A stretch of 64,000 nucleotides of DNA from an uncultured Parvibacter sp. (GTDB lineage Bacteria; Actinomycetota; Coriobacteriia; Coriobacteriales; Eggerthellaceae), in the NCBI GenBank assembly GCA_910587945.1, contig CAJUNI010000001.1:10283-74282 (forward strand), in the 5' to 3' direction. Positions 35,183 to 64,000 of the stretch are shown one piece after another. The position numbers and the translations under genes are program-made. Under the pieces are notes generated by a model that saw only the letters and a program-made list of their open reading frames with translations, was not told the origin of the DNA and searched no databases. Within the stretch, counting starts at the first letter, position 1. Every line of letters begins with the position of its first letter.

Positions 35183-35314
35183 TGATTATTCCTACTTATT
35201 CATAGTAGGAGCAGTGTCTTTACCACTGGATTGAAGATAGGTGCAAATTCGAAAGGCTATAGCCATGAGCGACACCCATCATGACATAAAGAAGTTCAAC
35301 CATCATACCTTCGC

Positions 35315-35324
35315 GGGGGGGGGG
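35315..35324 (+). repeat. G10 homopolymeric tract between ATG 35265 and the giant ORF frame
   Basis: Counted directly: c35314, then ten G, then t35325. Confidence 0.95.
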
Positions 35325-35439
35325 TCCTCTCAACGAAGATCTTCCTAATTCCCCCCATGCGCCTACAGGGTTAGGGGAAGAGTTACCACAAACGGCCGAA
35401 AGGACTGATTACCGTCGGCCGGCTAAGCCCTGGGAGAGG

Positions 35440-38400
35440 GTGGTGTCGGTTGTGATGGCGGTCCTTTTGGCCGTTACTATGTTTGACGCCAGTTCCTTGT
35501 CTCCATTAGTGGCAGAAGCGGCTCCCGAGGAGCCCGCAGTCGAGGCACCCGTCGATGACACTGCTGCCACCGAAGAAGCGCAGTCCGAAGAGAGCGACTC
35601 GACGGACCCCGATGCTTCGGCGACCGAGGAGGGGGAAGAGGCTACTCCGGAGGAGACCGAAGAGACAGCCAAGCCAAAGCTCTCGGAGCTCCAAGGAATT
35701 GCCCTTGATCAATCGGCACTAGAGACTCTTGCACCCGATGGTCTTATTCCCCTGGACGAGGTAACTCCTGCCTTTGAAGAAGGCACCGGATCACTTGAAG
35801 ACATCATCATCCCGGCACTCAATGTATGGGGTGCTCCTTTGGCTGCAAGTACGGGATATCTGGTTTCTGACCAGCCCCTTCATGTCGCTTTGACCCTTGA
35901 CGAAGAGGCGCTCAATCGCGGATTTATCGGAGGTACGGCTGCCGCTGATCGCTTCAATTTCACTATAGAACTGCCCTATGTCTATAAAGCTTCCGAAGAT
36001 GGAACCCTCGGAGTTACCGCCTCGGCGGAAGAGTGGATGGTTCGGGCTGCCTTAGCGCAAGCCTACGATGAGACCGCTGACAACGCTACCACAGAAGAAA
36101 TTCAAAGCGCCGCTGCAGCGCTCATTGAAACCATGGATCCGACCCAAGCCACCCGTGCGGTATTGCGCAGTAGCGACATTCCCCAAGGCTGGAAACTTTG
36201 GCAGCGTCATGGGTCTGGTTGGTTGCCCTTGACTGCCGATGACCTTGCGGCAGGTATTAGTGGCAAGGTGCTGTTCCGCTATGAGGGCCTTGGGCTCGGT
36301 GATTCTGCCGCAGATAAAGCACTGCAAGAGTCCACGGACGAAGCAGATATTGCCTTACGGGATGCCGTCGTTCCCGGTGCCCTCGATGCTACTTCTCAGC
36401 TGCCGGAATTCGAGCTCACCGTTGTAGGATCGCTCGACGAAGGTCACAGCATCCCCGTGGTCTGGGGTTATGAGGGTCACTCTTATACCAACAAGGAAGG
36501 TGAGGTCACGCTTGGTGCTGCCCGCCGGGCTGCCGTTGAATCCATCCCCCTTGCTGCAGGGGAGTTTGATGGCCAAGCCGAGCTTTCAGTGGAAGCCCTT
36601 GCGGCGCCAAAGGGTTGGAGCGTCCATGCGCTCACAGTCGCTATTCCCGAAGATGCTCCTCGGGCCCAAGCACTCAATGTGGCGGCGCTCTATCCGGAGC
36701 ATTTGGCCCTTCGAGACGACGCTCGCTTTTATGATGTAACCGCTCTGGAGGCCGAAGCGCTCGTAGAGCTCGATTTCACGGACACGGCAGCCATGGAAGA
36801 GGCGGGCGCAACGCCCGTGGATGCTTCGGTGGTAGCTACGGGTTCCATTTCTGCAGCCCTCGAAGAAGCCGGGGCTATCGAGCCTGGTGAGACGCGCACG
36901 TTGGTAGTGGCCGTCCCCTGGGCAGAGGGCGCTTTCGCCTCGCTGTTGCCGGCCACCGACGACGCATCAGCGCAGGCTCCGGAGAAAACGCTCGTAACCG
37001 ATGAACAATGGGCCGATGTCTTTGCCGTGCAGCGTCCGCTTTATGGGGGTGTTCTTCAGAACAAAGCCACCAGCGAAGAGACGCAGTCCGTGCAGGTCCC
37101 TGTGGTGTTTGAAGCGGAGCCGATCTTTGCTCAAGAGGATGACACCATTGCCCTGCGTTTGCGCGAGGAAGTAAATGCTGACGTTACCGATGCCCCCGCG
37201 TCCAAGGATGAGCCGGAAGCCGAGGAACCGAGTGATGCCGAGGAAGGCGACGAGTCCACAACAGAGGAAGATCCTGCCGACGGAAACACGGAGGCAACCG
37301 AGGAACCTGCTACCGAGATCGCCCCGCGCCCGGAGCCGGTGAAAAACTATGGCATGTATGCCAACGCCCTGGTGGAGCGTCCGCTCTATCGAGCTGCTGG
37401 TGCCTACAATCTGGCGGACCATTTTAATCCCTACCTGTTCCCGGCCACCACGTTGATGGAATTGCCGGAAACGGAAAACGTTTACATGGTGTCTAAGAGC
37501 ACCGACGTAAAAGTTCAGACAATGATCGAGGTCAACTCCAGCGGTGGCTTCATTGGTGACTTGACCCACCCTATTGAACTCAAGATTGTGGTGCCCTTCA
37601 TTTATAAAGATGCCCAAGGCAACGTGCTCACGGCCGATACTGAAGAGGCCTACAAAGAGGCCATGGGTATCACGGGTAATCTTACTCCCGAGCAATGCAA
37701 TACCATGATGCGCCTCGCGGCAACACCTCAAGATACGGATGCCGCGGCCTTCTTTGAGGAATGGCGTGTATATGTTTGTCCGAATGGAACCACTGAGGGT
37801 ATGTATCAGTTTGACCCGGAGTGGATGGATCCCAACAGCCCTTTGGCCTCTCCGCTCTATGCCGGCAAGGGTCTAACCGGTACCTTTATTTTGCAATACA
37901 TTGGTGCCGGCGGCATGTTCAGTAATCAATACAGCGCAGCACCCCAGTTTGATATCAAATTCTTGGGATCCGTTCCCGAAAACACCGCCGCCACTATGAA
38001 GGTCGGCGGCAAAGTTACCCTCTACACCGACGATAACAACGAACGCCACGAGGGTCTCTATGAAGTGCGACCAGGCGAACTAGATCCGACCTCGGACAAA
38101 CTTCGCTACATGACCTTTATTAAAACGAACCTCGCTTGGGAAACCGATCTTTCCGTCAAATACGACAAAGGTGATCAAAAGCCCCTGCTGTGGGAGCCCA
38201 TCAACTACCTGGTGTACGAGGTACGGATTCGCAACACCTCGGAGGTGGACGACAGTGGCGAAGTAACCCCCATTGATCTGGTGCGGCACAACTTAACCGT
38301 TGCCTATGACGGCAGTTCTGTGGGCGGTGTCCGGCGTCGTGACCTTATGGCCTATATGTTGGACGAGTCTGGGAATGTGGTTCCCGTTACTACCTATGAC

Positions 38401-41400
38401 AGTGACGGCAACATCCTTACCGACTTAACAGACGACATCCAAAAAGGGGGTACCTTCATTGGTGTTCCCAATAAGGGTGGCGCTCTCATTTATAACCTGG
38501 ACGATTTGCGCCAACCGGGCGATAGCGAAGAGCAGTTGGCTCAACGCATTGCTCAATTCTGGAATACTGCCGATCTCATTTATTTCTCGGATATTGATGA
38601 TTGGGGGTTAGAAGAAATCCCCTATCAAAATCTAGGTCTGAGTGGTCGTATCTCCTTTGTGGATGAGGGGCCTATTGATACGGGGCAAATCTCTACCTAT
38701 TTAGTAGCTGTTCCTTTCACTACCAACATTGCCTACAGCACGAGTGCGGGCGGCACAAAAACCTACGCCACCTTGCCGGCTCGAAACATCTCCACTATTT
38801 TCTTTGGTGGTCGTGGGCTGGATGGATTCCAGTGGTCCAAGGATGATCAGGCGAACAACGGTCAATTCATGCCCGTGAAAGCTACGATGAGTCACCAAAA
38901 GCAAGCTTTTGATGAAGAAACCCAGACCTGGAAAAATGTGGGTCTGGGCCGCATCGGCTATCTTTCTAAGTATCGTCTCAACAACTTCAAAACTCAAGGC
39001 AACGTCTATATCTCAGGTATCCAAGATGGCTTGGAATATGGTCCGCGCTTGACGGAAACTCTTCCCACCAATTGGGATTTGGACTCCATTGAATTCCACG
39101 TGGGCAAATCCGGTGCCGGCTATGCCGCCAATACTCATTTGGACGAGAATGCAACGGTGGCCACCGGGGCACAAGCCCTGGGCAATTGGTTTGATGCCGA
39201 TCATGGCCTACTGCAATTTGAAGTGAGCACCGTACCCTTAGATGATGGTTGGACGGTAGAGGGCGTTGATACTCAATGGGTGTCGCTGCCGTCGTCCATG
39301 ACCGCCCATTTTGAGGGCGATGCTAACGGCTATGGCATCTGGAAAATCGGCTCGACCAATGGCCAGAAGTCCATCGCCGATGTGTTGGAGTCTATGGGTT
39401 ATCAAGCCAAGAGCCGCACCAAGATGGTGGCAACGGATCGCCTGGGCTGGTTTACCGGCAACGTTCGTATCCTGTTCGCCCAAGGCTTTGATCCGGGTCT
39501 TACCCTTCCGGTAGAGGTGGTAGTTAACGGTACGATTCGCACGCCCCAAGGCGATGACGCCGGTGGCGCGTTCACCAACAATTCCACGCTCCTCTCCGGT
39601 ACGCCTCAATGGGTGCCTCCCATCAACTACTCCGACAATACCCAAGGTCATTGGGGTGCAGCCATTTCTGCGAGCAAAGCGCAGGCTTCCTTGGAGGCCG
39701 ATGGCCCGGTACAACCAGGCGTCCATGGTTTTGCTTACAGCTATGCGGAGTCCGAGGGTGGCACCATTACCTATGGCCCCGAAAGCGAAATCAAGGCAGC
39801 CCCGCTGGATCAAAATGGCGGCGGCTTCCTCTTCGCCCTGACCAACAGTTCTCGTTCTCGTATGGAACCGGGCACCTTTACCACGTCGGTATTCTCGGAT
39901 GCCTCGGATCCGGTGGCGAAGGGCACCCTCTATGACGAGTGCGAATGCTTCTATCACCGGGCAGGCTATGACGAGGTTACAAATATCACCTGGCCTAATG
40001 CTGGCTGGGAGCGCGAAGGCCACAAAGGCTTTGAGGCCAAGTCCATCATCTTGTCCTCCAACTTCTTGTCTCAAGTTGATGTAACGAGCTTCACCATTCA
40101 TCCGGTTCATGAGGATCCCGAAGAGGGAGGCACCGGCCCCGTTGTGCTTTCTCGCGCAGAGCTCGAATCCTACAAAGTGACGGCAGGGAGCGCTCTGGGC
40201 AACGCTCATCCCGAATTGGTAGGTCTTATCTACATCCCCAATACGGTATGGAACTTGCCTGGTTGGAGTGCCACGCCCTTAGAGAATGTAAGCTTCACCT
40301 TTGATTCCATCGAAGGATCTATTGGTTACGACGCCACCAACCCCGGTGGGGTATCCAATGCGAACAAGAACGTCTTTATTGCGTTCCATGGTATCGCCCA
40401 TCGATTGGGTGAGCAGGACAAGCCGGAAAGCTATCTTCCCATGGGAGCCACGCTGGCTACCAACTACAACGATAGCCGCTATGAGGAAGTGAAGGCCTCG
40501 GACGACGCAATTCTCTTTGGTTCGCTAGCTAACCCCACGCTCTATGCGTTTGGTTTGAGCAACAGCCTGAGCAATACGGGCTATGTGGATATGACCCAAG
40601 GCAATACGGCGCTTCAAAGTGTGTATCTGGGACGCAATCATGCAGGCTTTAGCTTCTATCTCGAAAACGATACGGTCGCTCCCATCTGGGGTGGTACCTT
40701 CACCACTTCTCCGATGAAGTATCAAATTGTGGACGACCCGGTGGTAGGCAAATATCTTGCGGGCTATGACGCCTCCCATATCACGCTGTCGAAGTACCTG
40801 TTGGATGTTATGAGCTTGGACGATCCCAACGCTCCCTTCCTTACTATCAAAGCGTTGGCTTATAACCCCACGACTGACACCGAGACCATCAACACCTATA
40901 CGTTCACACGCAACCAGCTCAATGCCTATGTGGGAAAGAGCGCTCACACCTATAAGTACAATGCCCAGCGTCGCTACAATACTGGCTATGTGACGCGAAC
41001 GGGCTATAACACCACCGAAAATGTGGTTATCCCGAAGAGCGCCTGGGGCAACAATTACTTCCTCAGTCTTGAATTGAACTACGACTACTTCAAGAAAGAG
41101 ATCAAGTTCAGCTCCAACTACGACGGCTACTCCTGGGATACCGGCCGCTACTACTCTATTTACGAAGACACCATCGTTAATCGTCGACCCACCGTGGCAA
41201 TCTATGGTGCCGCTACGATGCCGGGCACCTACTCGGTACAAGGTACGTTTAATGCTGCCAAGCATCCGATCTTCCAGCCGCTCAATGCGGAGGCTAAGGC
41301 AACGGCCAACATCACCACCAACGCTGCAGATCCTACTGTAGTGGCTCGGGGTTTCGAAAAGTACAACATCAATGACACCACCGCCTGGGGTGACTTTGAA

Positions 41401-56400: not shown

Positions 56401-59400
56401 AACCCACCCTTCGTAGTGGAATGGGGTCATACCGATCGCCACACTGGCGCCTATCGGGTGGATCATCTCACACCGAAGCAGCTCATTGAGCAAGGCTGGA
56501 CGGTGAACATTACGACCCAGCCCGACTACGGCACGAACACCACCGATAATCCGGAGTTCGGCAAGCCTGACAGTGATGATCCTACGGATCTCATTAACGA
56601 CGCCGATCCGGTCTTTGGCGTCAGCAAAGAAAAAGAACGGGATAACGAAAAGGTCGTCTTTGAGATTGCGATGCCTGACGACGCCTCTGACGAGGAATTC
56701 AACCGCTTCGACACCATGCTCGAGGCCTATTGGGGAGGCATCCATCCGACTGGCTATATGGGTGTGGGGGACACGCTGACCGTGAAGGTGCGGGCACGCA
56801 TTGATAACCTTCCCAGCGAAAGCTATGTGAAGACCCGCTTCCCCGATAGCCTGACCTACAAGGAAAAGATCAACCGGATCAACACCTGGCGGGGCGAGAC
56901 CTCGACGGTTCATATCACACTCCATGATTCCCAGCTTTTGTGGTTGGACAACAACTACAACGGTCGGGGCTGGCGTCACAGCTTCGCCAATGGTTCGACG
57001 GGGGCAAAGTCGGCTCAGCTCTATCAAGAGGCGCCGGCTCCAAACCCGGATCCCTATACCATCCATCCTTACAACTTTGCGTTGCTGGATACGTCGCGCT
57101 ATCGCATGGATGCCGCCGACAAGGATGCCGATCATGAGGATCGTTATAACAACACCACCGGAGCCTTTGAGCCAGCGGTTGACTATGACAACGACGGCGA
57201 TTTAACCGACGAATACCTCACGGCCACCACCGGTACCTTTAAGATTTGGTGCCCAAGCTCCTCGGTTCGTGGCGATACCTACGCTCTGCGCTCCCTGGTG
57301 GTTGACCAAGACTTTGAGGTGAGCTTGGCCAACGACGCCTTCTGGCAAGCAGACAACAAGTTCTATATCACCCAAGCGGTGAACACTGGCGGTGCGGTCA
57401 ACAGCTTCATCATGGATTGGCAGTTGCCCTACTATGCAACCCAGAATTCTTCCATCTACGATGCTCAGTATCAGACCACCTTGTCTCCCATCTGGCGCAT
57501 TCGCAAGCAAAATGTGAAGACCATTCATCCGGGTGTCTGGGAAGTAACCGGAGCGGAATACAACGAGGATGGCACACCGGCCAATGAGTTGGCGGAGCAG
57601 GCAGAAGCCTTACGGCTCTATGTCTGGGCACGCGTGGGTTCTACGGACATCACGAAGTCGAACTCGGTGTACTTCGAGCAAAACGGTGCCATGAACAACA
57701 CCTATGAGAACTACGCAATGCCCGGTACCGATGCTGACCGAGACTACTTCTATGGCGAGGACGACTTCGCGGTAAATGGGGCAGGGCAGTTTATCTATGG
57801 TCCCGATGGGAACCGGGTAAGCGACGACTTCAATACGGCCGACGCCGAAAATAAGACAACCAATGTGCGCAATCCCAATAGTCCCTGGGTGTTGCTCGCG
57901 GTTTACAACGCTACGGATGAAACCAACAACGAGCGACCCATTGATGTGTCCTATCTCACCGGCGGCCAGCAAGACATTCGGCAAATTCGTTGGGTCGTGA
58001 AAGCTGTTGATACCGATGCCGTTCATGCCACCTCAGGAAAGGGCTTGAGCAATAGCACCGCTGATAAGGCGTTAGGACAAAGCCTTGATACCTATAAGAC
58101 CTACGAGAAGGGCGTGCCCCACGGATTGCGTCTGAAGGTAGACGCCATGCCCGATGACTTGAGCTCCGATGCGTTGAAGGCAGCCACGGAAGGACCCCAA
58201 GAGGCAGACGAACTTGATCCCGATCGCCTGAACGTGGGTTGGGAGGCCACTAAGAATCTGGAAGGGGATGACTTCCTCTATTCATCCCATGGGAAGCTAC
58301 TGCTGAACAAGGGCGTTCCCATGCCCAGTTCCATTACCGACAACGCTGCTGCGGTGCAGTGCCAAATTGATGTGGACACCCGTAAGGCCATCAACGACAC
58401 CTCATCTCCCAGCAATCCCGACGACGATGATGATGGGTTCCAAGGTGGCGAATCGTCTGAGACACCGTCGGTTCACCTGAATCACTTTGTTTCCAGCGTG
58501 CTGCGCTACGACGATACGAAATATGTAGAAGTAGAGCGCCAGCGCGTTGGCTTCTATCGTATTCATGAGAAGCCGGCGTTGATGCTGACCATGGAGCAGG
58601 CCTACTACAACGGCAGCGCCAACAAGGGCTATAAGTGGGAAACCGGCACGCCGTCTTTGAATTTGTCGAATTCAAAGATGATGCGCTACAAGATCACGCT
58701 TACGAACCTCGATGAAGACATGTTGAATACTTTGGGACTGATCAACCTTCAGCTCGATACCTGTACCAACCCTGACCTGTCCATTCTCTTCCCGGTCCTC
58801 GAGCAGTTTGGCGCTGCGGCGGCGTTGAATAATCAGACGCTGACCTACGTGCCCTACCGGGATACGCTCGGAGTGGACAGCGACGGCAATCCCACCTGTA
58901 AGTTGAACTTGGGTTACAAGAGTGACCCGGTGCTGGTGGAGGTCGAAAAGACCATTCCGGGTACTGACATCACCTACACCACCTGGGAAGTTGACCCGGA
59001 TCACCCGGCCGTTTCTATGGACGGTAGCACGCCGCTGTGGACCTATCACATTGAAAACCAGACGCCGGCATTTACCACCGCGAAGAAGACCAAACAGGTG
59101 ACTACCGAGCTGCCCGATGGTACAACGCAAACAGAAACGGTGCTTACGGATGAGGATGATATCTATGACATGGATCCCACCGATCCTACCAACGTTCATC
59201 CGCTGACCCTGACCGACCCGCAGATTCGGGCGGAAACCGACCCGGATTATCCCGGCAGCATGATTGCCAAAGATAAGATGCGCGACATCTTCTCTCAGGC
59301 CGATGCAAAGTACATGAGCTGGCACTTCACCGGTCGTCAGCTTGAGGATGGCTCCTATGACAGCGCGTCTCTCAACCCGGGCCAGGCCATTGTGATTGAG

Positions 59401-62400
59401 ATCATGATGCCCATTGATCCGACGGCGGGACCGCACATGCCCACCGATCAGCTCAAGCCCAGCGGCTATGCCTATAAGGAAGGTAACTACGAGCCCTATA
59501 TTCCGGTGAGCCAAGAGGTCATGAGTACCAACTACATCTTGGATACCCGTGACTGGAACTTGGATGATGACACCAACGAAATGCTTATGCAGGTAGAGCT
59601 GCCGGCTATCGGCTTTGCTACCGTTGATGTCCATACTCAGGCAAAGATGTCTACCTCTCAGCTGGGTACTGACTACACCAAGACCATTCAAGGACCGGTG
59701 GGCGTACCCGAAGGTGGCAACTACTCCTATCGGGCCCAAGCCATTAACCGTGGCATGAGTCCAACCATGTCGCCGAACTACACCCATGGCATCCTCTTTG
59801 ACGTCTTGCCCTATGAGGATGACGTCCATGTGGTCAACAGCGAAGGCAACCAGCCGACCACCCGTCGCTCTACCTGGAACGGTTGGGTAGATGACCTGGA
59901 TTCCATCACGCTGACCATGAACGATCCGACGGGTGAGCAGGGCGGATCTCGGGTATTGGGTACCGCCGAAGCTCAGTTGTGGGTTGGCCCCTACTCCTAT
60001 AACCAGGCCGCTGATGTTATGACGCCGCTCACAGAAGAGGCGCTTCCGCAGGTGTGGTCACGGGCTACCGACATGAACAAGATCGGCTTCATGAACGATC
60101 GTCACGTAAACATTAATGCCGATGCAGAAGCTAATTTGCGAGCGAGCAATTTTGTGAAGTTGGAAGAGCTCAAGGAATACTGCGAGAAGCACCCGGCTGA
60201 GGCCGAGAACTTGCGCAAGGCATTGCGTGGGGTTTGGGCTGAGATTGTGGACAATCCGCTCTATCTGCCCAAGGTGGGCAACTTCGAGCTGTCTTACGAA
60301 ATGCATGCCCCACTTAACCTGCCGAAGTATCTGGGTACTACCAATGGTCAAGCCAGCATTGATATGTCTGAGGTTCAAAACCCCGGCCGCGCTCAGCGTC
60401 TGGCGGCGGTAACTCAGTGGAACTCTATGGCTCAGCGTATTAACCAAAAGGGCGGTGCTGCGGCAGACAAGACGGCGTTCCTCTTTGAGGATCCTGAGGC
60501 CGGTGCCTACATTGATGCCCCCGATACGCGCGGCTATGTGGGTGACTACATCTGGATTGATGCAAACTGGAACGAGCTCCAGGACGACACCAATGCAGAC
60601 GTTACTGGTACCACGGTGGATGATCTGGGTCGCACCACTACCTATCACCGGGGCGATAATGGCCGCTTCCTCTTGTCTACCGATAAGACCTTCGATGCTG
60701 AAGGCAACTGGCTGGGCAACTTCGTTAACGAGCAGGGCGAAACGGTCCAGACTGCCGATGCCCTCATCGATCTTGATTACGATGGGGAAGTGGAAGACCC
60801 CGGTGTAAACGGCGTTACCGTTGAACTGCTGAACCAGTATGGCCAACCGGTGAACCGCGAAGGCCAAGTGGCCAAGTGGGAGCAGCATCCCGACTCCGGC
60901 GTGTGGCGTTGGGTACTCTATGACGCCTATGGCCAAAACCGCGTCCTCACCGAAACTGGTGGTGGCTGGGTAGCTGCTTCGGGCGAAGGTCCGGTTACCT
61001 ACACCTCAGAGTCTGACTACTACGGCAACAAGGGCTACTGGATTCTGTCCAACATTAACCCCAACGCCGTCAATGAAATGGGCGAAAAGGTTGAGTACAA
61101 ACTTCGCTATACCTTCCCCTATGAGTATGCAAACTATGCACTGACTACCAAACTCATCGGCCCTGACAAAGACAATAAACTCATCATTGAGCGCATCGAG
61201 GATGATCCCGATACGCCAGAAAACGAGGCACGTCTGGTGCTGACCACTGAAGACACCATTGAATTGGTGGAAGTGGCCTACGAAGAAGACGAGTTCAAGA
61301 ATATGGCCAATGAGGACATCTTCATGAACCCGGATCCCACTCATCGTAAGCAGGACGCTCGGTCAACCAGCTACGACGTAGGTATTGCGCGTCCGGTTAC
61401 CTACCAAGGTACCGTGTTCCGCGATGACATGCTCGAGTCAACTCAGCCGAACTTCGCCTATGCTGACGGGCTTGAGCTGGATTATGACTACATCGATGGC
61501 TACTTGGATCACCAGCAAAACTACAACGATACCAGCGCGGCCATTGAGACCTTCCGCGAGCAGCGAGTGGCTTCTATGAATGTGTCGGTCCATCGCTACA
61601 GCCCTGTTACCAAGACGGTGGATCCGGTGCCGGCCTTAGATGTGGATGGCAACCCGGCGGTTTATAAGACCGAGACTGATGGTGCGTTTACTTTTGTAAT
61701 GCAGCCCGGCTACCACTATGTGGTTCGTTGCGATGACCAGGTGCCGACGCGCTTCCTGAAGCCGACCCCCTATCTGTTTGTTCAAGATCCGCTGGCTGAG
61801 CCCAATGCGACGCAACCGCTCCACGACAACGACGTGCGCATTTCGAGCCTTGATGGGCTGACCTATTACGAAACCCATTCCTTCTTGGCAAAAGTCCCGC
61901 TGGATGAAGCAAACCATGCTATTTATGAGCAGGATGAAGAGTGGCGTGGTTATCGCTATTACCACCAGATCGACCTGGGCTTTGTCGATGGTGCCCGGGG
62001 CTTCTTGGGCAATAAGGTATGGGACGATAGCGACTACAATGGTGTTCAGGTGGAAGCCAGCGACCAAGGGGTTGAGGGCATTCGCGTAACGGCTGAGCAG
62101 TACTGGTGGAATCCCAATGCCAATGGCCAAGGCCAAGGCGGCTGGCAGTTAGTGGAGAAGGACTTCTTCACCCAAACCACCAACCGGGCTGGCGTCTATG
62201 TATTCAAGGGTCTGCCGACCTATGTCTATGACCCGCTGGATACTACTGAAAACAAACCTGACGATCTGAAGCAGCGCTACCTAGCGGGCTATCGCTTACG
62301 CATTGATAACGATACGTTGGCTGACCAGGACGAAACCTGGAGCTTCACGCTGCGCAATAACGCCTATACCCATACTGGTGCGGTGGACGATGAACTTGAC

Positions 62401-64000
62401 TCCGATGCCTGCACCATTGAAATGACGGGACCGGACGATGCTTCCTTTGGCAGCGGCGCCACGACCACCAAGACTGTTCATTACCTGAACGAGGCAACCC
62501 CCTCTACGGCGGTGAATATCGACGAGGGCATCTTCGTGAACTCGATGATTGTCCTGGCAGGGTTGTCGATGCCGGGCAAGAGTGATCCGGCCAACATTGT
62601 GCAGGTAACGGTTCCGGGTGGTGGCACCTACGAGTTTGACTTCGCCAATGCTCAGCGCTTCGACCAATGGGATGCCGGTCTTGTGCGGGTACCCACGGCT
62701 GCGGTTACTGGCCGGGTATGGCATGACGCGAACTACGATGGCGTTCAGGCTAAGGATGCCGATGGTGCTTGGGCAAGCTCAGAGCCTGGTTTGGTTGGCG
62801 AACAAGTACTGTTGACTCAGTGGTACTACGAGCCGACGAAGACCAATCCGGCTGATGGTGGAAGCCACTGGTTCCAGAACCTCGACTTTGGTAACGACGC
62901 GCGGACCACGGCTATCAATAGCGCCCAAGCCTATGATGCGGCCAGCGCTACCACCGAGGGCGGCCCGGATGCTGCAGGCTTGATGCCGGGTGAGTTGTTG
63001 ACCACCACCGATGCCGATGGCGTTTATCGCTATGAGAATCTGCCCACCGCATGGACTGCCGATGATGGACGTCAGCGCTTGGCAGCCTATCGGGTACGAC
63101 TGGTATCCATGCACGTGGATGACAAGGGCACGGCTGATCCCAGTGACGATAATCATTGGTTGCCGACCCGCTTCCATCAAGGAGTAGGAGCTGCGGCTAT
63201 TGCGGTGGACTCTGACCTGCAAGACCAGACGGATCTGGTGCTGAGCAACCGTGAGATGGTAAATGGTGTGGCCCAAAATCGTGCCCTGTCGGGTCAAACG
63301 ATCTTGGCAGCACGTATTCCGATGGCTCGCTATGGTCAAGCCTCACAGGTGACCATTCCTGCTGGCGAATGCCCAGGTGGCGTGGGCGCTTCCTATGACT
63401 GGCTGAAGGTTCGCAACGATGCCTGGCGTGAGGGCGATACCTGGTGGGTCGCCTCGGGTGATGCGGGTGAATTGCCGCGGCCGACCGCCGACATCGAGGG
63501 CTATCTCTGGGAGGATCCCGACAACGATGGTATCCATGATGACGCCGAAGCCGGTGTTGCCGGCGTGCGTGTAACGCTAGAGCGCTATGTGCCCGATCCG
63601 GCCAACCTGGATGGCGATGGCGACGGCTGGCGTCGCGATGAAACCTGGCATAGTGACTGGGCAAACGATCCTGACTACACTCTCTACAACCCCACACCTG
63701 GGGTAGAAGAGGTGTCAGCGTGGGATGCCTATGACGATCATCCGCAACGCGGCATCGGCTCGGACTACGCGGGCCACTCGATGCGCACCGATGCAAACGG
63801 CCACTTCCTGTTTGCTGACCTTGAGACCCAGCGCCTTGAGGCCGATGGCACCACGACGGTGTTTGCCTATCGAGTGCGTGTAACGGTGTCACCTGACCTG
63901 CGCTACACCTACCTCATTGCTAAGTATCGTCAGGGCGAGAATTACACTCTTGACTCTGACCTGCGTTATCAGGATGCCTACCTCATGGATCCTGAGAGCC
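35440..64000 (+). CDS. Giant secreted cell-surface protein (adhesin-like, diverged beta-type modules plus SdrD-B-type repeats), 3'-partial. At least 9,520 codons are visible.
   Basis: No stop in the frame whose codons start at positions congruent to 1 mod 3, from 35290 to 64000. This was hand-translated continuously over 35401-40800 and in sampled blocks to 64 kb. The ORF track shows no ORF in this frame, as expected for an ORF that does not close in the window. Signal-peptide-like RRPAKPWERVVSVVMAVLLAVTMFDASSLSPLVAEA. The first canonical in-frame start is GTG 35440 (ATG 35455). The real start may be ATG 35265 via the G-tract. Confidence 0.85.
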   Translation, partial: MVSVVMAVLLAVTMFDASSLSPLVAEAAPEEPAVEAPVDDTAATEEAQSEESDSTDPDASATEEGEEATPEETEETAKPKLSELQGIALDQSALETLAPDGLIPLDEVTPAFEEGTGSLEDIIIPALNVWGAPLAASTGYLVSDQPLHVALTLDEEALNRGFIGGTAAADRFNFTIELPYVYKASEDGTLGVTASAEEWMVRAALAQAYDETADNATTEEIQSAAAALIETMDPTQATRAVLRSSDIPQGWKLWQRHGSGWLPLTADDLAAGISGKVLFRYEGLGLGDSAADKALQESTDEADIALRDAVVPGALDATSQLPEFELTVVGSLDEGHSIPVVWGYEGHSYTNKEGEVTLGAARRAAVESIPLAAGEFDGQAELSVEALAAPKGWSVHALTVAIPEDAPRAQALNVAALYPEHLALRDDARFYDVTALEAEALVELDFTDTAAMEEAGATPVDASVVATGSISAALEEAGAIEPGETRTLVVAVPWAEGAFASLLPATDDASAQAPEKTLVTDEQWADVFAVQRPLYGGVLQNKATSEETQSVQVPVVFEAEPIFAQEDDTIALRLREEVNADVTDAPASKDEPEAEEPSDAEEGDESTTEEDPADGNTEATEEPATEIAPRPEPVKNYGMYANALVERPLYRAAGAYNLADHFNPYLFPATTLMELPETENVYMVSKSTDVKVQTMIEVNSSGGFIGDLTHPIELKIVVPFIYKDAQGNVLTADTEEAYKEAMGITGNLTPEQCNTMMRLAATPQDTDAAAFFEEWRVYVCPNGTTEGMYQFDPEWMDPNSPLASPLYAGKGLTGTFILQYIGAGGMFSNQYSAAPQFDIKFLGSVPENTAATMKVGGKVTLYTDDNNERHEGLYEVRPGELDPTSDKLRYMTFIKTNLAWETDLSVKYDKGDQKPLLWEPINYLVYEVRIRNTSEVDDSGEVTPIDLVRHNLTVAYDGSSVGGVRRRDLMAYMLDESGNVVPVTTYDSDGNILTDLTDDIQKGGTFIGVPNKGGALIYNLDDLRQPGDSEEQLAQRIAQFWNTADLIYFSDIDDWGLEEIPYQNLGLSGRISFVDEGPIDTGQISTYLVAVPFTTNIAYSTSAGGTKTYATLPARNISTIFFGGRGLDGFQWSKDDQANNGQFMPVKATMSHQKQAFDEETQTWKNVGLGRIGYLSKYRLNNFKTQGNVYISGIQDGLEYGPRLTETLPTNWDLDSIEFHVGKSGAGYAANTHLDENATVATGAQALGNWFDADHGLLQFEVSTVPLDDGWTVEGVDTQWVSLPSSMTAHFEGDANGYGIWKIGSTNGQKSIADVLESMGYQAKSRTKMVATDRLGWFTGNVRILFAQGFDPGLTLPVEVVVNGTIRTPQGDDAGGAFTNNSTLLSGTPQWVPPINYSDNTQGHWGAAISASKAQASLEADGPVQPGVHGFAYSYAESEGGTITYGPESEIKAAPLDQNGGGFLFALTNSSRSRMEPGTFTTSVFSDASDPVAKGTLYDECECFYHRAGYDEVTNITWPNAGWEREGHKGFEAKSIILSSNFLSQVDVTSFTIHPVHEDPEEGGTGPVVLSRAELESYKVTAGSALGNAHPELVGLIYIPNTVWNLPGWSATPLENVSFTFDSIEGSIGYDATNPGGVSNANKNVFIAFHGIAHRLGEQDKPESYLPMGATLATNYNDSRYEEVKASDDAILFGSLANPTLYAFGLSNSLSNTGYVDMTQGNTALQSVYLGRNHAGFSFYLENDTVAPIWGGTFTTSPMKYQIVDDPVVGKYLAGYDASHITLSKYLLDVMSLDDPNAPFLTIKALAYNPTTDTETINTYTFTRNQLNAYVGKSAHTYKYNAQRRYNTGYVTRTGYNTTENVVIPKSAWGNNYFLSLELNYDYFKKEIKFSSNYDGYSWDTGRYYSIYEDTIVNRRPTVAIYGAATMPGTYSVQGTFNAAKHPIFQPLNAEAKATANITTNAADPTVVARGFEKYNINDTTAWGDFEQRKVIDFLDSRSGYSFFLGNNSSSVITRGKIVIEQTAPTSNPLFQGRLEGDGTTTKLYGWEAESIVLNQKLRQSASIRRVVITTIEDTDNPVAPTTPATTVVTRAQLDASYQNGGAYVIPSSVWGNHHLLRIEIDVTNFGASIDSDPTYEVKQGNKWVTTSDKPHRESIPRVILQGTPTRWGDLDLKCTFKTYNDCYTSGDTSNRSAADNAILAPRNPDYRILAYAFRDHNPRQYSENERDTRNDVFTNNNVGAHKQLADMEIENSGYVYHLMSVNRSKSLMGSFTTGNTDRMMDSQLQDYRGFHSSKVVLSASLLAAMTNPSVTLTFYDRDPITLTRGDADPTLDLNQFLVRANGTNTYDPTVNHGTDLAGAMAIPSAYWAPGYLKNVTVNFDSFTGSVLFAGTTSGSTRATNFIPPANKGAGAYVAIYGMADNPNYDLWLPGTFRTTFYRSGNDVSCNDNAALVVVKPTPRIFTRAFDNRSTLQFDDLEDPRSQAAPLFKERSGFIFQLGNASTSNLAPAKFTMTDLPAEQYESKLRGFETTHVWVSGSLINNTDIASVTLKVRDYADNVETITLDTTNTDPALNLATYAKNGGFDITPGAWADSDGNARYLLNVSVSFNQMKRNTAPARNPSSSTMANQAMVALYGKPTRVGNITVTGTLSSSYGATLAPDVSDSDTSTLEVVTAEPVLTIDRGWTLNGSPANGAPTSSPYVDSPSGKDTNLYQHYYYNSIPYRWGEDEAHEKAWTVYHLYNATESAVDSMDLNLILDQTTVDANGKKTGFVPTDLVISGFRTDSSGQWWLKNSSIIEGIDLFYSDHTPVTSASTTNMVNYAADDASGARVSIPMATLANYISGGTLTLPIDDTTFTNTSKVVKSVRIRFKTMGEQLTGSNRLDFYIYGKMEHHGAAAFSDEAPNGSWHNSAYYEANQTRYITTRAALYPRTGDYGYGISRNANRDIPIQAFQYGAYAEAFRGASSPVTSSPNPGEIVEVAHADKETGYTFQFWNKTQARSDKNSILYDLRSVGDKSGGHGAKSVHGLLTKRVEIDATMLTVGRLPGSTSSSLQSIKFSFIGNNGDQVITITPDQLATYLSGNKYIFRLDSQAAFASATDKYLRSVELVYGDIAPKYVCGTVTAKFFGDVDWYTQVYENGQDSLLEGYVGARQTGMPASIAPRNASDSAFLTVKKPYLGIETHGRYKDITESYIQNINNCDGNRTYLTVPYDRDHQLWVKVYNLDNFSKLEKSDVNIKLYLERENVPLESSPSMPNWLWTGFHATQMTVNRDLMDRFGTVGEIWLYSVEDNATAKPNTPTVKLEPVMNASGRPTGFKDKATGQVYALNGSGNLVLTEAQLQAMGIKNLYQVDLQDWLNMRTQVASDNVNAQTVIFDGFTDANFGKDFIAISADAKMYMGGIDYNPDCVLTKHDDTAELVSKMLFDTTTVAAFTDNQMTRRFDRWATSKEEGHDYPRHGSISNGNTTGEDHDHELQIGYKAQGSFLVDFRQGLLAAAEKTSKYEFEDYPYYLYSVKSFGNKPFNTAADLTMTQTIPAAHFDAYYIKIHPNAISYMQSIDITYGDGSIATIDLSSYGANSGNGNSWANGKRFLRIDLLYKENGVHKPFLRTQNGSATDTDDYAYRAAFDDTVPQADRVKEVTYHLRINQTAASGNTALGPDFGSWYDWKSLEATPLEVTGRYVPAKDVTDTGGFWAGNGTSQVRTSVRVGGSYSSNNHLRKAATRYDRWNDHSAADGFRSKFSWQDYYAFTDYSEDLVGKMRHLVTNVDYRVYETGNYVRVAALNNFTSGSKKLTTATLDTYEEYQGLASWEKGTGIRGNWEKAPFGKDTQYKVSYFRWQEAMKYPVDYVWGTSSWPNQNGMGVYIRSTWKNNDYVDKGHIFDFMNTGWRLVSFADEVHVREDLPVIRPDENGVYYGFLTTGMTLPYGDGDYYEGLPNPDDTGYDDDDDPSGGDDDGPQTDPDDPNEEDPEDEVKDDKQERKSMLRYVDHIDFYIREFRVDPVTGEPLKNAAGEYEYKTALGTYVSASTPGYTRVHRLSQGTGGPAANEIDFVGAWNAKKDVHVRFDHAGQDNASQISYVNASTPYSYIFTDLKTYDFVTSYDVVLTDVHGSADYTDETGYATNSHGDPYEKYSSWNRQDHDMLVYGRPYTWKPINTSKEPYKSDWARMKKDSINTVWTSTYRDYSKLADQGGHQYVNKVKDTGPSYGIGDNDHYKDRAYIVSFGIPIQANVWLDAQNSAGNNADGTTLYDYKDNNVKNVTPNIGTYEARMQNLKDKGGEDATGRATHISYAQLTANLSSYLRLQKVYIPKGFIDNIKKNADGTAENGGWFELQSFKFTVQVDGGTQTVTASWQDLVDWGLTSGPNSSTKYPDCYVIDVEKYLRQKFDDGSWTLATYKACDTTNTIEGYRGNPEVNRTYSRPRVVSMELTYNSPNALQRRELRMLDSEEWLTDTKAKAGVKNSRDADSYAFAFAYDGVFVDRTPDSYTSATATGNDPATGNWDDYSTPTFGKQGTGFPDVYSNDTVVVTDLKSKDPHADMSVLPNVIDDDGGYNLRHLLGILDSSMTRGATLPVRSASGSITGYRHVFAYDKAATDVESPVSYDPDSETMWTNIPDGGLYVGDYVEYDLYIGADAASVLPMESLSARFEVEKGQRIIGWEVKKQQDGTGAWVDANSANLPVTATLGNASGTNTQECLPQVDYSVTTTVTYPDPEPDPDPDPDPDPDPDPDPDPDPDPDPDPDPDPEPNPDPENPEPETPETPDTPEVPEETASVQTEQLTQNEMATQALVQSVAAAMPLVDPIITTTENYDNNRVLEFQVGRTLYELNENGEYVLTPEADRVVQPGKGVHIRVITQLTDEVSNSTYDQVKENTAWNDDRPTHYMNYHPRAYFYGTSAPKHGFTQYRAKGSSAQNYSTPFTYSNDEGLGTSDIAHEHSYNYVVGGIKQYGVRLRSDLTYYNHRSDHTRTHIETGSDGFSYVVNDDHAKDPTLDMQFTATSPYGVANVDGNPAQMTVGNLINPTYHTSNITVTVQLFDAQKLKGFELTQTPKIAQTNKKVLQANGADVDLRYPPTLAPSVNLEAGRATATSDGLNADPDRRPTIKIEYFDAPGTDPLVGTWKSEAEIRADHGGNVQAGYLVNVNPFRTVTQVRWTYYDIPATQTDSAGNQVPYRLEDVALVGVGRYLDNRNQNSSFHYSGTYQEQLEGWTSSEFAMDVGYTHYHEERTQVDFCGLPNNTDKTWFQVEEPKVHDLVMTKQDSGATQRFTTYRRMPVIRFQTQFFQSKTLAERPYKANAEQKIGYLPGERLWIKDALYNVPRGANSNQGTSAIEGEIYNPVFYERIPLNYLVDDDGHEIDAEYLFERLSAEGAIRWTDAQGRDVLKERTVDQKVHLRVTKVDEADAPETARDYGGMMVYQNANQSITNTSSRTFQDLVPATSSQNSRFGLFRIEWVPDEDLTGGVPMVPAGRDPLAPADKTAPGNACVEVGDTIELIFDVTAALDGLPQVYTNVGANTGAKAGTVGLEPWSFPRIGEYFHQWSAGDRWGYSGSNPLASNFSYSSISRGIVKMENQSKLMDLDFLHHEAAFTADKPGSVDLWEMFDGSYTYIPGTDEKTESYVIIGYKNNKGEMQDTQDSTHTIPVYGWKSKNAKGTDGSGGTYFLDEDASTGNYVQTARYTPRPAVNGTVASVASRLPSEAWLVSPNNESANRAQDTRYLRDYWSFVTKLRTTGPRGTAEGAETEWGSKTPLVWSETHLHLQKAWIATTSEFVAGATGSVDETADWESQRQYALWDAHESWPESSSMVSDWKGLFYGQYTTALQYHQSYTAKLQALNYGDRTLDGVEFTYVMPYGAEPEFEADSAGNLVPKVSAEVLANSTGMTNLSTDPKVNETYSAIDSSLVEVEILQTPYSAYAGYDAPSASQNPADYRDGLIQKSGVVDVSADRDRSTYEPKNATGNLATGGAPVVDTAAMTTQAYVESSQPWVLKITVKQPLGKWFGRNSDGTAVGEDKNVVDPDAYSGNAGYKINVSVASRIFANPANDEGEWYDRVMLSPWDKEEATGSDVAKGERPSRSSAYFAVYDLDHYEGISAQADTNKNDGDLNNLQMGGMDWRVVLSRNLADDTSWGSYNMPSVNGRTVLNNAILVRTPVADEDEDDPLAAASVQGGRAYNPVTITPQPTQPKPSTGTEEPVDPEEPGTTPEEPGVDPTDPTEPEEPGDEEAFDPTHVVWWMAYKNEEAASSPKLYAQTGTKAIQRKPLIRVWNTIGEDGVGADSTAYHVQDEGDVRQLNIHVENRYWWNDTAVNSVKRNSSSDTQLNERRSHTYAVDGGQMGSLMQPIVTIVLPESLAPVDSSTHRPYARVIDWEQTFKSADWDVVCAYDATADSKAKVGPSANLSKEEAAKLFDATVTYEKVEDPTALDGATDEYRFVIRFTAKHEINGDPTLEHALRSKGTDVFKFDIITVGDSKLSEEDQKHSEVLRSMENIRTYVSSQLENSQFLTDEDIAGNPYTVGSPYQRRFPGDTSDKRLDSRQIKLATKATVLTPVSSAYNYFNGPHAIPNFWDSTDYTFMTQTEIDRLTAPYAKIDPNTPNSNYPNGRPIGGKVFTYTCDEGADICLACTNYANEQAAAAAGQWTLGTARPCECVHRNQTDWGNFGWDYNKNTFKNPGQVVYKNYKTKSDGSVGDLRDAFNNPNKNNYYLTCKPGAGGCAGDDCGWTINWFAGSWGDRYRWVGCPTHTRTHRETIRIDEFSTYGVLPADPINDGVKQRDPKSVTQEGTEAAKTNKLVRFAGRYYEDQDASSALEPARLHVEDYWFRANHSLSAESTARLNGNEGTLSAKTFMNRRTGKIASTRDSGVMAGLKLRRWSSPQLDILYEVEHESGYGATGDTTGAGAIEGQTLQRSGALGESAQDSWQYGESLWYAAKLTNVKGEDQFDGSPIFHGKYVFAFDLPKETTYFTNQAAMTFTDTPDGLAAIKQVLAQGVDYDDDNPPFVVEWGHTDRHTGAYRVDHLTPKQLIEQGWTVNITTQPDYGTNTTDNPEFGKPDSDDPTDLINDADPVFGVSKEKERDNEKVVFEIAMPDDASDEEFNRFDTMLEAYWGGIHPTGYMGVGDTLTVKVRARIDNLPSESYVKTRFPDSLTYKEKINRINTWRGETSTVHITLHDSQLLWLDNNYNGRGWRHSFANGSTGAKSAQLYQEAPAPNPDPYTIHPYNFALLDTSRYRMDAADKDADHEDRYNNTTGAFEPAVDYDNDGDLTDEYLTATTGTFKIWCPSSSVRGDTYALRSLVVDQDFEVSLANDAFWQADNKFYITQAVNTGGAVNSFIMDWQLPYYATQNSSIYDAQYQTTLSPIWRIRKQNVKTIHPGVWEVTGAEYNEDGTPANELAEQAEALRLYVWARVGSTDITKSNSVYFEQNGAMNNTYENYAMPGTDADRDYFYGEDDFAVNGAGQFIYGPDGNRVSDDFNTADAENKTTNVRNPNSPWVLLAVYNATDETNNERPIDVSYLTGGQQDIRQIRWVVKAVDTDAVHATSGKGLSNSTADKALGQSLDTYKTYEKGVPHGLRLKVDAMPDDLSSDALKAATEGPQEADELDPDRLNVGWEATKNLEGDDFLYSSHGKLLLNKGVPMPSSITDNAAAVQCQIDVDTRKAINDTSSPSNPDDDDDGFQGGESSETPSVHLNHFVSSVLRYDDTKYVEVERQRVGFYRIHEKPALMLTMEQAYYNGSANKGYKWETGTPSLNLSNSKMMRYKITLTNLDEDMLNTLGLINLQLDTCTNPDLSILFPVLEQFGAAAALNNQTLTYVPYRDTLGVDSDGNPTCKLNLGYKSDPVLVEVEKTIPGTDITYTTWEVDPDHPAVSMDGSTPLWTYHIENQTPAFTTAKKTKQVTTELPDGTTQTETVLTDEDDIYDMDPTDPTNVHPLTLTDPQIRAETDPDYPGSMIAKDKMRDIFSQADAKYMSWHFTGRQLEDGSYDSASLNPGQAIVIEIMMPIDPTAGPHMPTDQLKPSGYAYKEGNYEPYIPVSQEVMSTNYILDTRDWNLDDDTNEMLMQVELPAIGFATVDVHTQAKMSTSQLGTDYTKTIQGPVGVPEGGNYSYRAQAINRGMSPTMSPNYTHGILFDVLPYEDDVHVVNSEGNQPTTRRSTWNGWVDDLDSITLTMNDPTGEQGGSRVLGTAEAQLWVGPYSYNQAADVMTPLTEEALPQVWSRATDMNKIGFMNDRHVNINADAEANLRASNFVKLEELKEYCEKHPAEAENLRKALRGVWAEIVDNPLYLPKVGNFELSYEMHAPLNLPKYLGTTNGQASIDMSEVQNPGRAQRLAAVTQWNSMAQRINQKGGAAADKTAFLFEDPEAGAYIDAPDTRGYVGDYIWIDANWNELQDDTNADVTGTTVDDLGRTTTYHRGDNGRFLLSTDKTFDAEGNWLGNFVNEQGETVQTADALIDLDYDGEVEDPGVNGVTVELLNQYGQPVNREGQVAKWEQHPDSGVWRWVLYDAYGQNRVLTETGGGWVAASGEGPVTYTSESDYYGNKGYWILSNINPNAVNEMGEKVEYKLRYTFPYEYANYALTTKLIGPDKDNKLIIERIEDDPDTPENEARLVLTTEDTIELVEVAYEEDEFKNMANEDIFMNPDPTHRKQDARSTSYDVGIARPVTYQGTVFRDDMLESTQPNFAYADGLELDYDYIDGYLDHQQNYNDTSAAIETFREQRVASMNVSVHRYSPVTKTVDPVPALDVDGNPAVYKTETDGAFTFVMQPGYHYVVRCDDQVPTRFLKPTPYLFVQDPLAEPNATQPLHDNDVRISSLDGLTYYETHSFLAKVPLDEANHAIYEQDEEWRGYRYYHQIDLGFVDGARGFLGNKVWDDSDYNGVQVEASDQGVEGIRVTAEQYWWNPNANGQGQGGWQLVEKDFFTQTTNRAGVYVFKGLPTYVYDPLDTTENKPDDLKQRYLAGYRLRIDNDTLADQDETWSFTLRNNAYTHTGAVDDELDSDACTIEMTGPDDASFGSGATTTKTVHYLNEATPSTAVNIDEGIFVNSMIVLAGLSMPGKSDPANIVQVTVPGGGTYEFDFANAQRFDQWDAGLVRVPTAAVTGRVWHDANYDGVQAKDADGAWASSEPGLVGEQVLLTQWYYEPTKTNPADGGSHWFQNLDFGNDARTTAINSAQAYDAASATTEGGPDAAGLMPGELLTTTDADGVYRYENLPTAWTADDGRQRLAAYRVRLVSMHVDDKGTADPSDDNHWLPTRFHQGVGAAAIAVDSDLQDQTDLVLSNREMVNGVAQNRALSGQTILAARIPMARYGQASQVTIPAGECPGGVGASYDWLKVRNDAWREGDTWWVASGDAGELPRPTADIEGYLWEDPDNDGIHDDAEAGVAGVRVTLERYVPDPANLDGDGDGWRRDETWHSDWANDPDYTLYNPTPGVEEVSAWDAYDDHPQRGIGSDYAGHSMRTDANGHFLFADLETQRLEADGTTTVFAYRVRVTVSPDLRYTYLIAKYRQGENYTLDSDLRYQDAYLMDPES
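49564..49689 (+). repeat. Pro-Asp dipeptide repeat (21 consecutive P-[D/E/N] pairs) inside the giant ORF
   Basis: Translation is PDPEPDPDPDPDPDPDPDPDPDPDPDPDPDPDPDPDPEPNPDPE. The codons are synonymously scrambled (cct/cca/ccc/ccg with gac/gat). Confidence 0.95.

Follow-up and report, generated by a model that had tools for sequence, protein, structure and literature searches.

Almost half of the 64,000-nt stretch of uncultured Parvibacter sp. DNA analyzed here (contig CAJUNI010000001.1; the whole stretch is referred to as the window) is occupied by one real, very large gene whose end lies outside the sequence. With a probability of roughly 0.68, we interpret its product as a giant adhesin, anchored by sortase and subject to phase variation, from a gut actinobacterium resembling Eggerthellaceae; the window would have captured the gene in its off phase. 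The interpretation brings together an open reading frame (ORF) of 9,570 codons, a run of ten G residues (G10) that separates a plausible start codon from that frame, and a set of orthologs in which the run sits at the same position and varies in length.

In the plus-strand frame with codon starts at 1 mod 3, the last stop codon is TAA 35287-35289, after which the frame stays open through nt 64000, as the first-pass annotation of this DNA had claimed. The giant ORF thus spans 28,710 nt or 9,570 codons (35290..64000, +) with its stop codon beyond the window, and this run-off explains its absence from the ORF list on which that annotation drew. The other five frames hold 539-1,115 stops each over the whole window; with stop triplets at a frequency of 0.036 there, the chance that a frame stays open for this long is ~1e-153. 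Synonymous codon usage in the giant frame correlates with that of 13 upstream housekeeping genes at r = 0.88, compared with r = -0.14 and -0.06 for the same DNA read in the two shifted frames, and this native usage identifies the frame as coding. Many long ORFs (up to 463 aa) lie antisense to the gene, for example at 47104-48495, 55747-57135, and 58672-59829 on the minus strand. We reject them as genes and regard them as most likely shadows of a coding strand rich in G and C at third codon positions, because the sense frame is conserved and its codon usage is native.

The length of the frame does not appear to be a product of assembly. Tandem Repeats Finder returns one array only, 127 nt of Asp-Pro-coding sequence at 49562-49688; the matches from chunked self-BLAST are weak (20-30% identity) and confined to aa 1500-2730 and aa 8890-9480; and the internal duplications seen by profile self-scans and self-BLAST are all old and diverged. 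Because the frame is non-repetitive and is collinear with independent homologs (P0003/L001, L021, and P0040, described below), we reject a collapsed repeat or misassembly. A collapsed or misjoined repeat was one of the refuting outcomes named in the first-pass annotation; neither the repeat finder, nor self-BLAST, nor collinearity bears it out. An exact 40-mer from the window end had no match in the genome and metagenome contig collections searched.

The 5' end of the gene is where the frame is interrupted. No ATG, GTG, or TTG occurs in the giant frame between 35290 and GTG 35440. Upstream, ATG 35265, with AAAGG 8 nt before it, opens a leader reading frame (35265..35348, +; frame 0 mod 3) of 27 codons that closes at TAA 35346-35348; the first-pass annotation had taken 35265 as the start of the giant frame itself, which fails because this ATG lies in a different frame. 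The ATG is separated from the giant frame by the G10 homopolymer (GGGGGGGGGG; 35315..35324, +; codons 17-20), the sole G/C run of at least 7 or A/T run of at least 8 in the whole 64 kb. With G10, the product is 27 codons long; with one G fewer (G9) or two more (G12), the leader and the giant frame are joined. The G9 product reads MSDTHHDIKKFNHHTFAGGGPLNED...RRPAKPWERVVSVVMAVLLAVTMFD and aligns with the in-frame N-terminus of P0003, and the joined product, with one G removed or two added, can be written MSDTHHDIKKFNHHTFAGGGPLNED...RRPAKPWERVVSVVMAVLLAVTMFDASSLSPLVAEAAP.... ATG 35265 is the plausible start, and the true 5' end of the giant gene if the run is G9 or G12; since it is out of frame through G10, the gene is either in an off configuration or affected by a homopolymer error. 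A homopolymer of at least about 8 nt thus stands in the 5' coding region, and a change in its length toggles the frame; we propose that it acts as a slipped-strand on/off switch, set here to off.

Codon choice within the tract is also unusual. GGG is rare among Gly codons (9.4% in the window gene, 11.7% in L001), and the other three Gly-Gly-Gly tripeptides of the window protein use GGC or GGT, so that it is the nucleotide run itself that is conserved. A consensus scan places a putative promoter, TTGAAA-17 nt-TAGAAT (35154..35182, +; 10/12 matches), upstream of the leader, and a similar TGTTGAA(A/G)-N17-TA(G/C)AAT precedes the orthologous genes in L001, L004, and L015. An Rfam scan of 34300-36000 detected no riboswitch or leader RNA.

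To place the tract in a wider setting, we turned to related loci. A degenerate-pattern scan of species-representative genomes gave 11 loci, all in Eggerthellaceae (Adlercreutzia mucosicola, A. agrestimuris, A. wanghongyangiae, 'Bacterium D16-34', and two metagenome-assembled genomes (MAGs)), with two loci in each of five of the six genomes; apart from the truncated L013, all have ORFs of >3,700 aa that run off the fetched DNA. Six further loci came from a metagenome scan. Orthologs from Adlercreutzia and other Eggerthellaceae, with protein identities of 27-37%, carry a G run at the same codons, 17-20, and in P0003 (L001) the ATG is followed by a G10 at the same aligned position (Gly18-20), where it is in frame.

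We compiled the state of the tract for the clade whose N-terminus begins MDK. The window allele is G10 and off, A. mucosicola DSM 19490 (L004) is G9 and on, a metagenome contig nearly identical to it (L015) is G7 and off, and A. wanghongyangiae R7 (L008) is G10 and off. The 90%-identity cluster of P0003 represents one species-level gene, found on seven contigs from different samples with identical flanks, and only G10 is in frame there: L001, L026, and L027 are G10 and on, L022 and L024 are G9 and off, and L023 and L025 are G11 and off. Over the 11 alleles (four loci plus the seven-contig cluster), four are on and seven off. Otherwise identical alleles of the orthologs thus differ in length (G9/G10/G11 in seven assemblies; G9 versus G7 in the A. 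mucosicola type), and the window's own species is represented by a single sequence. Within the P0003 cluster, gene callers began some products at MDKPVLDRF... and others at an internal GTG (MRVVSVV... or MSVVMAV...). Overall, the pattern of the tract points to a slipped-strand contingency locus.

Such an arrangement has been described in Bifidobacterium breve UCC2003, in which the sortase-dependent pilin genes bbr_0113a/b and bbr_1889a/b contain an intragenic G-tract between a short upstream ORF and a large pilin ORF (Penno et al. 2022, PMC9187656). Expression in that strain depends on replication slippage, and pili are formed only at permissive tract lengths (PMC9187656). Both systems are found in gut Actinomycetota and have a G-tract that splits the 5' end of a sortase substrate, the sortase motif of the window protein being predicted from its homologs. 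In both, only certain lengths would give a full-length exported protein, and the length varies in populations, here among ortholog assemblies. The two differ in that B. breve makes a 2,674-aa pilin from a pilus operon, whereas the window encodes a single protein of at least 9,570 aa, has no adjacent sortase or pilin genes, and places the hydrophobic signal downstream of the tract; switching at this locus is, moreover, predicted from sequence comparison.

The G10 of the window could alternatively be a homopolymer sequencing or assembly error in an intact G9 gene that is constitutively expressed and whose tract is not regulatory. One base restores the frame, and homopolymers are error-prone; it has been stressed that their lengths in ordinary assemblies can include technical error (PMC9187656). 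Poly-G artifacts are visible in our own material, where the contig end L016:1-89 consists of G36, G17, G20, and G8 runs, a typical sequencing artifact and a reason to treat poly-G calls from metagenome assemblies with caution. We nevertheless consider an error unlikely, because the tract recurs at the same codons in orthologs of 27-37% protein identity and is built of the rare GGG codon, whereas a neutral Gly-Gly-Gly would not be expected to stay a pure G run. Lengths of 7, 9, 10, and 11 are found in independent assemblies, two isolate genomes among them, and at least half are out of frame.

It is also conceivable that translation normally starts at GTG 35440 or 35443. In this view, the ATG and G run belong to a leader or small upstream ORF with at most a fine-tuning effect on expression, and the protein is made at any tract length. 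These GTGs are the first in-frame starts and follow directly on the purine-rich GGGAGAGG, and gene callers picked the equivalent GTG in the off-phase homologs P0009, P0011, P0012, and P0014. The Shine-Dalgarno-like sequence, however, lies 0-3 nt from the GTGs, which is too close, and the product would begin MVSVVMAV..., without a basic n-region. The interval from the tract to the hydrophobic stretch stays open and contains conserved residues (GGG.L.E, P.A, PTG, PW.RVV), the ATG reads through without a stop in all on-phase alleles, and the corresponding internal 'start codons' of B. breve were judged to be non-functional (PMC9187656). An internal start is accordingly improbable in our assessment.

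Single in-frame stops, each with the frame continuing beyond it, are present at different positions in three homologous giant genes (L021:9929-9931, L002:8158-8160, and L028 ~22414-22416). They may have arisen by nonsense mutation, the target being huge and often silent, or by error in assembly, or they may be sites of read-through; the 9,570 codons of the window copy contain no comparable stop. The three homologs, together with the out-of-frame ATG, might be taken to indicate that the window gene is a decaying pseudogene inactivated by a frameshift. We find this very improbable, as a stop-free frame of this length has a chance probability of only ~1e-153, its codon usage is native, and the sole lesion falls exactly within a reversible, hypermutable tract.

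G runs also occur outside the coding region in clades that lack the coding tract. Runs of G9-G11 are located in the leader or upstream DNA at L009:9036-9044, L017:2639-2649, and L018:2383-2391 and 2410-2418; the L017 run stands between a TACAAT box and the ATG, and one of the two L018 runs is within a terminator-like hairpin. These runs may represent a transcription- or leader-level version of the same switch. In addition, a metagenome contig has a C7 run (L020:2449-2455) where the same paralog in A. mucosicola DSM 19490 (L012) reads CCGCCC, and with the extra base the ATG no longer shares the frame of the giant ORF.

The protein that an in-frame tract would yield begins with a putative signal peptide or signal anchor (35413..35520, +), composed of the basic RRPAKPWER (35413-35439), the hydrophobic VVSVVMAVLLAVTMF (35440-35484), and SSLSPLVAEA/AP with a predicted cleavage site. 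Its hydrophobic core of 15 residues is the only Kyte-Doolittle peak >1.6 in the 9,570 aa, and for translation to reach these features it must begin at ATG 35265 and the G run must change by 1 base. The first-pass annotation had proposed the signal peptide and counted at least 9,520 codons. The basic stretch, the hydrophobic core, and AEA/AP are indeed present, and the count is correct from GTG 35440, the first in-frame start; the n-region that it cited lies upstream of that codon, however, and is unreachable in frame as sequenced, since no in-frame start precedes GTG 35440, so that the signal peptide needs ATG 35265. Its broader claim of one very large exported surface-protein gene is supported, and there is one hydrophobic segment near the N-terminus with none in the remaining 9,500 aa. 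The signal segment includes a motif, W[VE]R..S.....LLAVTMFD, that is nearly invariant across Eggerthellaceae paralogs otherwise ~27% identical; it reads PWERVVSVVMAVLLAVTMFD in the window and is also present in L001 and L004-L015. Conservation of the hydrophobic anchor LLAVTMFD (window 35440-35487 and equivalent positions) suggests recognition by a dedicated export, processing, or localization factor.

Searches for relatives of the protein supply information about its missing C-terminus. Three slice searches among 5.8 billion proteins gave one or two matches each, five proteins in all, every one a giant fragment, and the named matches come from Adlercreutzia. P0003 (4,632 aa, L001) is collinear with window aa 10-5015, with the next frame continuing to aa 5943, and the eleven genome loci cover window aa ~46-3980. 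The closest homolog (P0015, L021) lies on an 89-kb contig of an Eggerthellaceae MAG, where one frame is open over 28.7 kb bar a single TAG and is collinear with window aa 701-9569 at 32-48% identity. Beyond the point that corresponds to the end of the window, this frame extends for another ~1,395 aa, up to a LAQTG signal. The protein ends ...WLTPLAQTGDKLLVGLLMLVAAAAAALAALALRRRRKRDEE, in which PLAQTGD, a hydrophobic stretch, and RRRRKRDEE form a LAXTG-type sorting signal. LAXTG is the motif preferred by actinobacterial class E sortases. The first-pass annotation had placed a sortase signal beyond the window, which fits the C-termini of the homologs, although the motif of the nearest relative is LAXTG and not the LPXTG it had named. 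Products called in homologous contigs (1,682 + 9,880 aa in L026; 8,900 aa in L002 after the position equivalent to window aa 8196) suggest that the full-length window protein would comprise ~11,000-17,000 aa.

The family extends beyond Eggerthellaceae. A profile of the most conserved core (aa 5101-6190) retrieved 90 proteins, many of 5,000-7,200 aa, from 1.84 billion cluster representatives. Among the named matches are WP_041140343.1 of Beduini massiliensis, 6,925 aa long and annotated as an 'SdrD B-like domain-containing protein', and a protein from a Defluviitaleaceae MAG. P0040, which falls into one 90% cluster with WP_041140343.1, is collinear with window aa 891-9547 at ~25% identity; it starts with a signal peptide and carries the sorting signal NVDTGD at its C-terminus. 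WP_041140343.1 and its relatives are thus true homologs that differ from the window protein in belonging to Bacillota, in being ~7,000 aa long with many segments shorter, and in having an ordinary short signal peptide without the LLAVTMFD motif. Nearly all full-length relatives have a signal peptide at the N-terminus and, at the C-terminus, an xxTG(D)/TSD motif that precedes a hydrophobic segment and basic tail. From these homologs we infer a Gram-positive surface location for the window protein, and their C-termini argue strongly that it would be wall-anchored. By collinearity, we assign it to an unnamed giant collinear surface-protein family of Eggerthellaceae and Bacillota with members of 7,000-17,000 aa.

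The 9,570-residue sequence is Cys-poor, as the first-pass annotation had stated (Cys 0.34%), and contains 7.8-8.9% each of Thr, Ala, Asp, and Gly. The same annotation had described the body as a series of diverged modules, which is not supported for most of it: only aa 171-1145 and 1470-2725 are internally repeated. The first of these regions is a duplicated N-terminal module (35800..38724, +; aa ~171-550 and ~700-1145 by profile self-scan) whose two copies are joined by an acidic low-complexity linker (aa 625-686) and have no Pfam match. The second consists of five tandem diverged units of ~250 aa each (39697..43464, +; aa 1470-2725), every one predicted to form two beta-sandwich domains. Using hmmsearch with a 250-aa unit profile, we found five copies in the window and L021, three in most other paralogs, and one in L005/L007. 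AlphaFold2 modeling of the unit at aa 2008-2255, from an alignment of eight unit copies, gave a reasonably confident all-beta structure with a predicted local distance difference test score (pLDDT) of 76.8 and a predicted template modeling (TM) score of 0.81. Foldseek searches of the PDB with this model returned integrin alpha-V leg domains, the D1-D2 domains of the Clostridium perfringens pilin CppA, SdrG, and AspA/BspA C-domains, the best-ranked matches being weak (TM 0.34-0.43).

After the units, the sequence is non-repetitive for ~6,000 aa and is interrupted by short linkers of low complexity, among them an Asp-Pro repeat linker (49540..49767, +; aa 4751-4826) that contains the Tandem Repeats Finder array and has low-complexity matches only, to linker regions of PARP, ClfB, and InlK. 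The most conserved core (50590..53859, +; aa 5101-6190) is without known domain; in 100-aa bins it is mostly 52-62% identical to L021, with two bins at 38-45%, and identity to L021 is lowest in the N-terminal part of the protein, at 21-45%. A Cys-rich stretch (55087..55659, +; aa 6600-6790), with 9 of the 33 Cys residues of the protein in aa 6657-6782, has no counterpart in L021. P0001 has a CxxC...CxxC element of its own, which sits further along, in the next conserved module (at ~window aa 7700-7800), and not at the Cys-rich position. That module (56140..59994, +; aa 6951-8235) is common to the Adlercreutzia fragments P0001 and P0002.

The only domains recognized by family are SdrD_B-type (Cna-B-like) repeats at the end of the window (61957..64000, +), with units from near aa 8907, 9141, and 9404 and continuing past the last nucleotide. 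The first-pass annotation had spoken of SdrD modules in the protein, and Pfam PF17210 finds SdrD_B domains here, with E = 2.2e-13 and 6.6e-16 and scores of 50.8 and 59.0 bits against a curated cut-off of 29.7; the region carries the motif G..W.D.[ND].[DN]G. Beyond SdrD_B, the Pfam search, a check proposed in that annotation, returned only CarboxypepD_reg and low-complexity linker matches (halves of the protein; ten slices, E up to 1), and searches of NCBIfam and PDB sequences were no broader in outcome. Outside the duplicated and repeated segments, none of these searches recognized anything in the first ~8,800 aa, and the same was true of the closest homolog.

These repeats recall the staphylococcal MSCRAMM/Sdr adhesins (SdrC/D/G and ClfB). 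The likeness comprises SdrD_B repeats near the wall-proximal end, a dipeptide-repeat linker, a C-terminal sorting signal, as seen in homologs of the window protein, and the weak fold match of the unit model to SdrG and ClfB. The window protein differs in being 7-10 times larger, in using Asp-Pro rather than Ser-Asp repeats, and in having a relative whose motif is LAXTG rather than LPXTG. Neither an A-domain match nor a whole-family match was obtained, the NCBIfam SdrD, SdrC, and ClfB models scoring 20-29 bits against cut-offs of 999-2,500. Because of these failed family models and the Asp-Pro repeat, we do not classify the window protein as an Sdr protein.

Several observations weigh against a phase-variable, sortase-anchored adhesin. 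The tract length in the window could be a sequencing or assembly error and is known from one sequence only; homopolymer miscalls or slippage during library polymerase chain reaction could inflate the length variation among metagenome assemblies; and poly-G artifacts do occur in such data, though in L016 at a contig end. Other paralog clades have no G run in the coding region. Neither the C-terminus nor any sortase gene lies within the window, and the 9,570 aa contain no LPXTG. For approximately 87% of the protein, no match was obtained in Pfam, NCBIfam, or the PDB sequences, and one of the two AlphaFold2 models, that of aa 6951-8150 from a 3-sequence alignment, was unusable (mean pLDDT 27.9). 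Given this domain-less share, fold matches at a TM of about 0.4, and the failed model, our use of the term adhesin is based on architecture and analogy.

A wall-anchored protein with a mainly non-adhesive role would account for some of the same data. It could be a sheath or S-layer-like coat, an aggregation scaffold, or the carrier of an unrecognized enzymatic or toxin module within the ~8,300 domain-less aa. Classical adhesin stalks are built of repeats, whereas most of this sequence is non-repetitive and without family match; conservation is highest in an internal core (aa 5100-6100) and not at the tip; and the Cys-rich insert is lineage-specific. Yet the motif scan, Pfam, and NCBIfam gave no sign of an HExxH or other catalytic motif, or of an enzyme family, the sole segment with a usable model resembles adhesin and pilin beta-sandwiches, and phase variation is typical of surface structures that face hosts, phages, or immunity. 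On balance, we view a chiefly non-adhesive function as unlikely.

If the gene does encode a phase-variable adhesin, we envisage the following sequence of events. Transcription would start from the sigma-70-like promoter near 35154-35182, and translation would proceed from ATG 35265 through the poly-G run at codons 17-20, the length of which would be altered by slipped-strand mispairing in replication. At G9 or G12, the ATG and the giant ORF would share one frame, and the protein would be made in full; at G10, as sequenced, translation would stop after 27 codons and the gene would be off. The on-phase protein would be exported via its single N-terminal hydrophobic signal and coupled covalently to peptidoglycan by a sortase, through a LAXTG-type signal beyond the window. 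It would then project as a long, largely beta-sandwich fiber, with the variable N-terminal two-fifths as the distal, probably ligand-binding end and the SdrD_B repeats as the wall-proximal stalk.

Giant surface proteins are known from other bacteria. Ebh of Staphylococcus aureus is a giant extracellular Gram-positive surface protein that can be likened to the window protein by description, not by sequence. The Giant1-5 proteins of Apilactobacillus kunkeei (PMC12863079) are similar, again by description rather than by sequence, as multi-thousand-residue surface proteins that take up a sizeable share of their locus and have a proposed role in cell interaction; the abstract of that source reports no poly-G switch. 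In a survey of giant genes, Actinobacteriota were the commonest source outside Omnitrophota, and giant genes had few detectable domains, some with LPXTG-anchored adhesin domains (West-Roberts et al. 2023, bioRxiv 10.1101/2023.11.21.568195). The Omnitrophota giants have many transmembrane segments and SecA-like domains, whereas the window protein has a single N-terminal hydrophobic segment and no such domains. That survey makes no mention of Eggerthellaceae or phase variation (bioRxiv 10.1101/2023.11.21.568195). Our literature search found no paper linking Adlercreutzia to a giant protein and, among the matches listed, none linking Eggerthellaceae to homopolymer phase variation. Giant wall-anchored proteins and G-tract switching of sortase substrates are both already known; we found no earlier account of this family or its collinearity across phyla, or of any phase variation in Eggerthellaceae. 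A bolder proposal, which we offer as tentative and somewhat doubtful, is that these genes form an undescribed two-phylum family of sortase-anchored proteins of 7,000-17,000 residues, with a mostly non-repetitive body of ~8,000 aa that holds uncatalogued folds or activities, and that Eggerthellaceae gained a dedicated and unusually conserved signal-anchor, LLAVTMFD, as well as poly-G switches, which one clade would carry within the coding sequence and others within the leader.

The genomic surroundings of the gene are ordinary. An origin-proximal cluster of dnaA, rnpA, yidC, jag/KhpB, rsmG, parA, and parB occupies positions 251-6960, which places the start of the giant gene ~35 kb from the likely replication origin. 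The chromosomal genes that come after it encode a DinG-type helicase-exonuclease, LysR regulators, pyruvate:ferredoxin oxidoreductase subunits, an alanine symporter, ProC, MnmA, and PucR. The ~30 upstream genes in the window include no sortase, and no sortase, pilin, glycosyltransferase, or accessory secretion gene stands beside the giant gene. Three consecutive plus-strand ORFs (13134-14288, 14352-14867, and 14873-17650) lie upstream of the LysR gene; Pfam recognizes nothing in two of them and, in the 925-aa product, only a weak M28 peptidase match at the C-terminus. Downstream of the giant gene in L021 (L021:29018-38509) are a GerE/LuxR-type regulator and a dimethyl sulfoxide-reductase-family molybdoenzyme cluster. 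This context is not shared with the upstream genes of the window, and the giant gene is thus not part of a conserved operon.

Eggerthellaceae such as Adlercreutzia and Eggerthella are gut commensals that metabolize drugs and phytoestrogens, and to our knowledge their colonization factors are almost entirely undescribed. The locus provides a concrete candidate for such a factor, a putative giant wall-anchored fiber encoded by 1-2% of a small genome. With it comes a proposed poly-G on/off switch, of which public assemblies already show alleles from G7 to G11. The locus also explains the trouble that these genes cause in annotation, where they appear with internal GTG starts, as 'partial' proteins, or as genes broken at frameshifts, and the ~8,000 conserved residues without known domain are worth structural study. 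If our interpretation is correct, control by replication slippage, described for Bifidobacterium pili, would also operate in another actinobacterial lineage and on a far larger protein. On the bolder and more doubtful proposal of a two-phylum family, cells that carry a sub-micrometer surface fiber and cells that lack it would coexist continually in gut populations, and this fiber would be a major stochastic determinant of how Adlercreutzia-like commensals interact with the host, with phages, or with partner cells.

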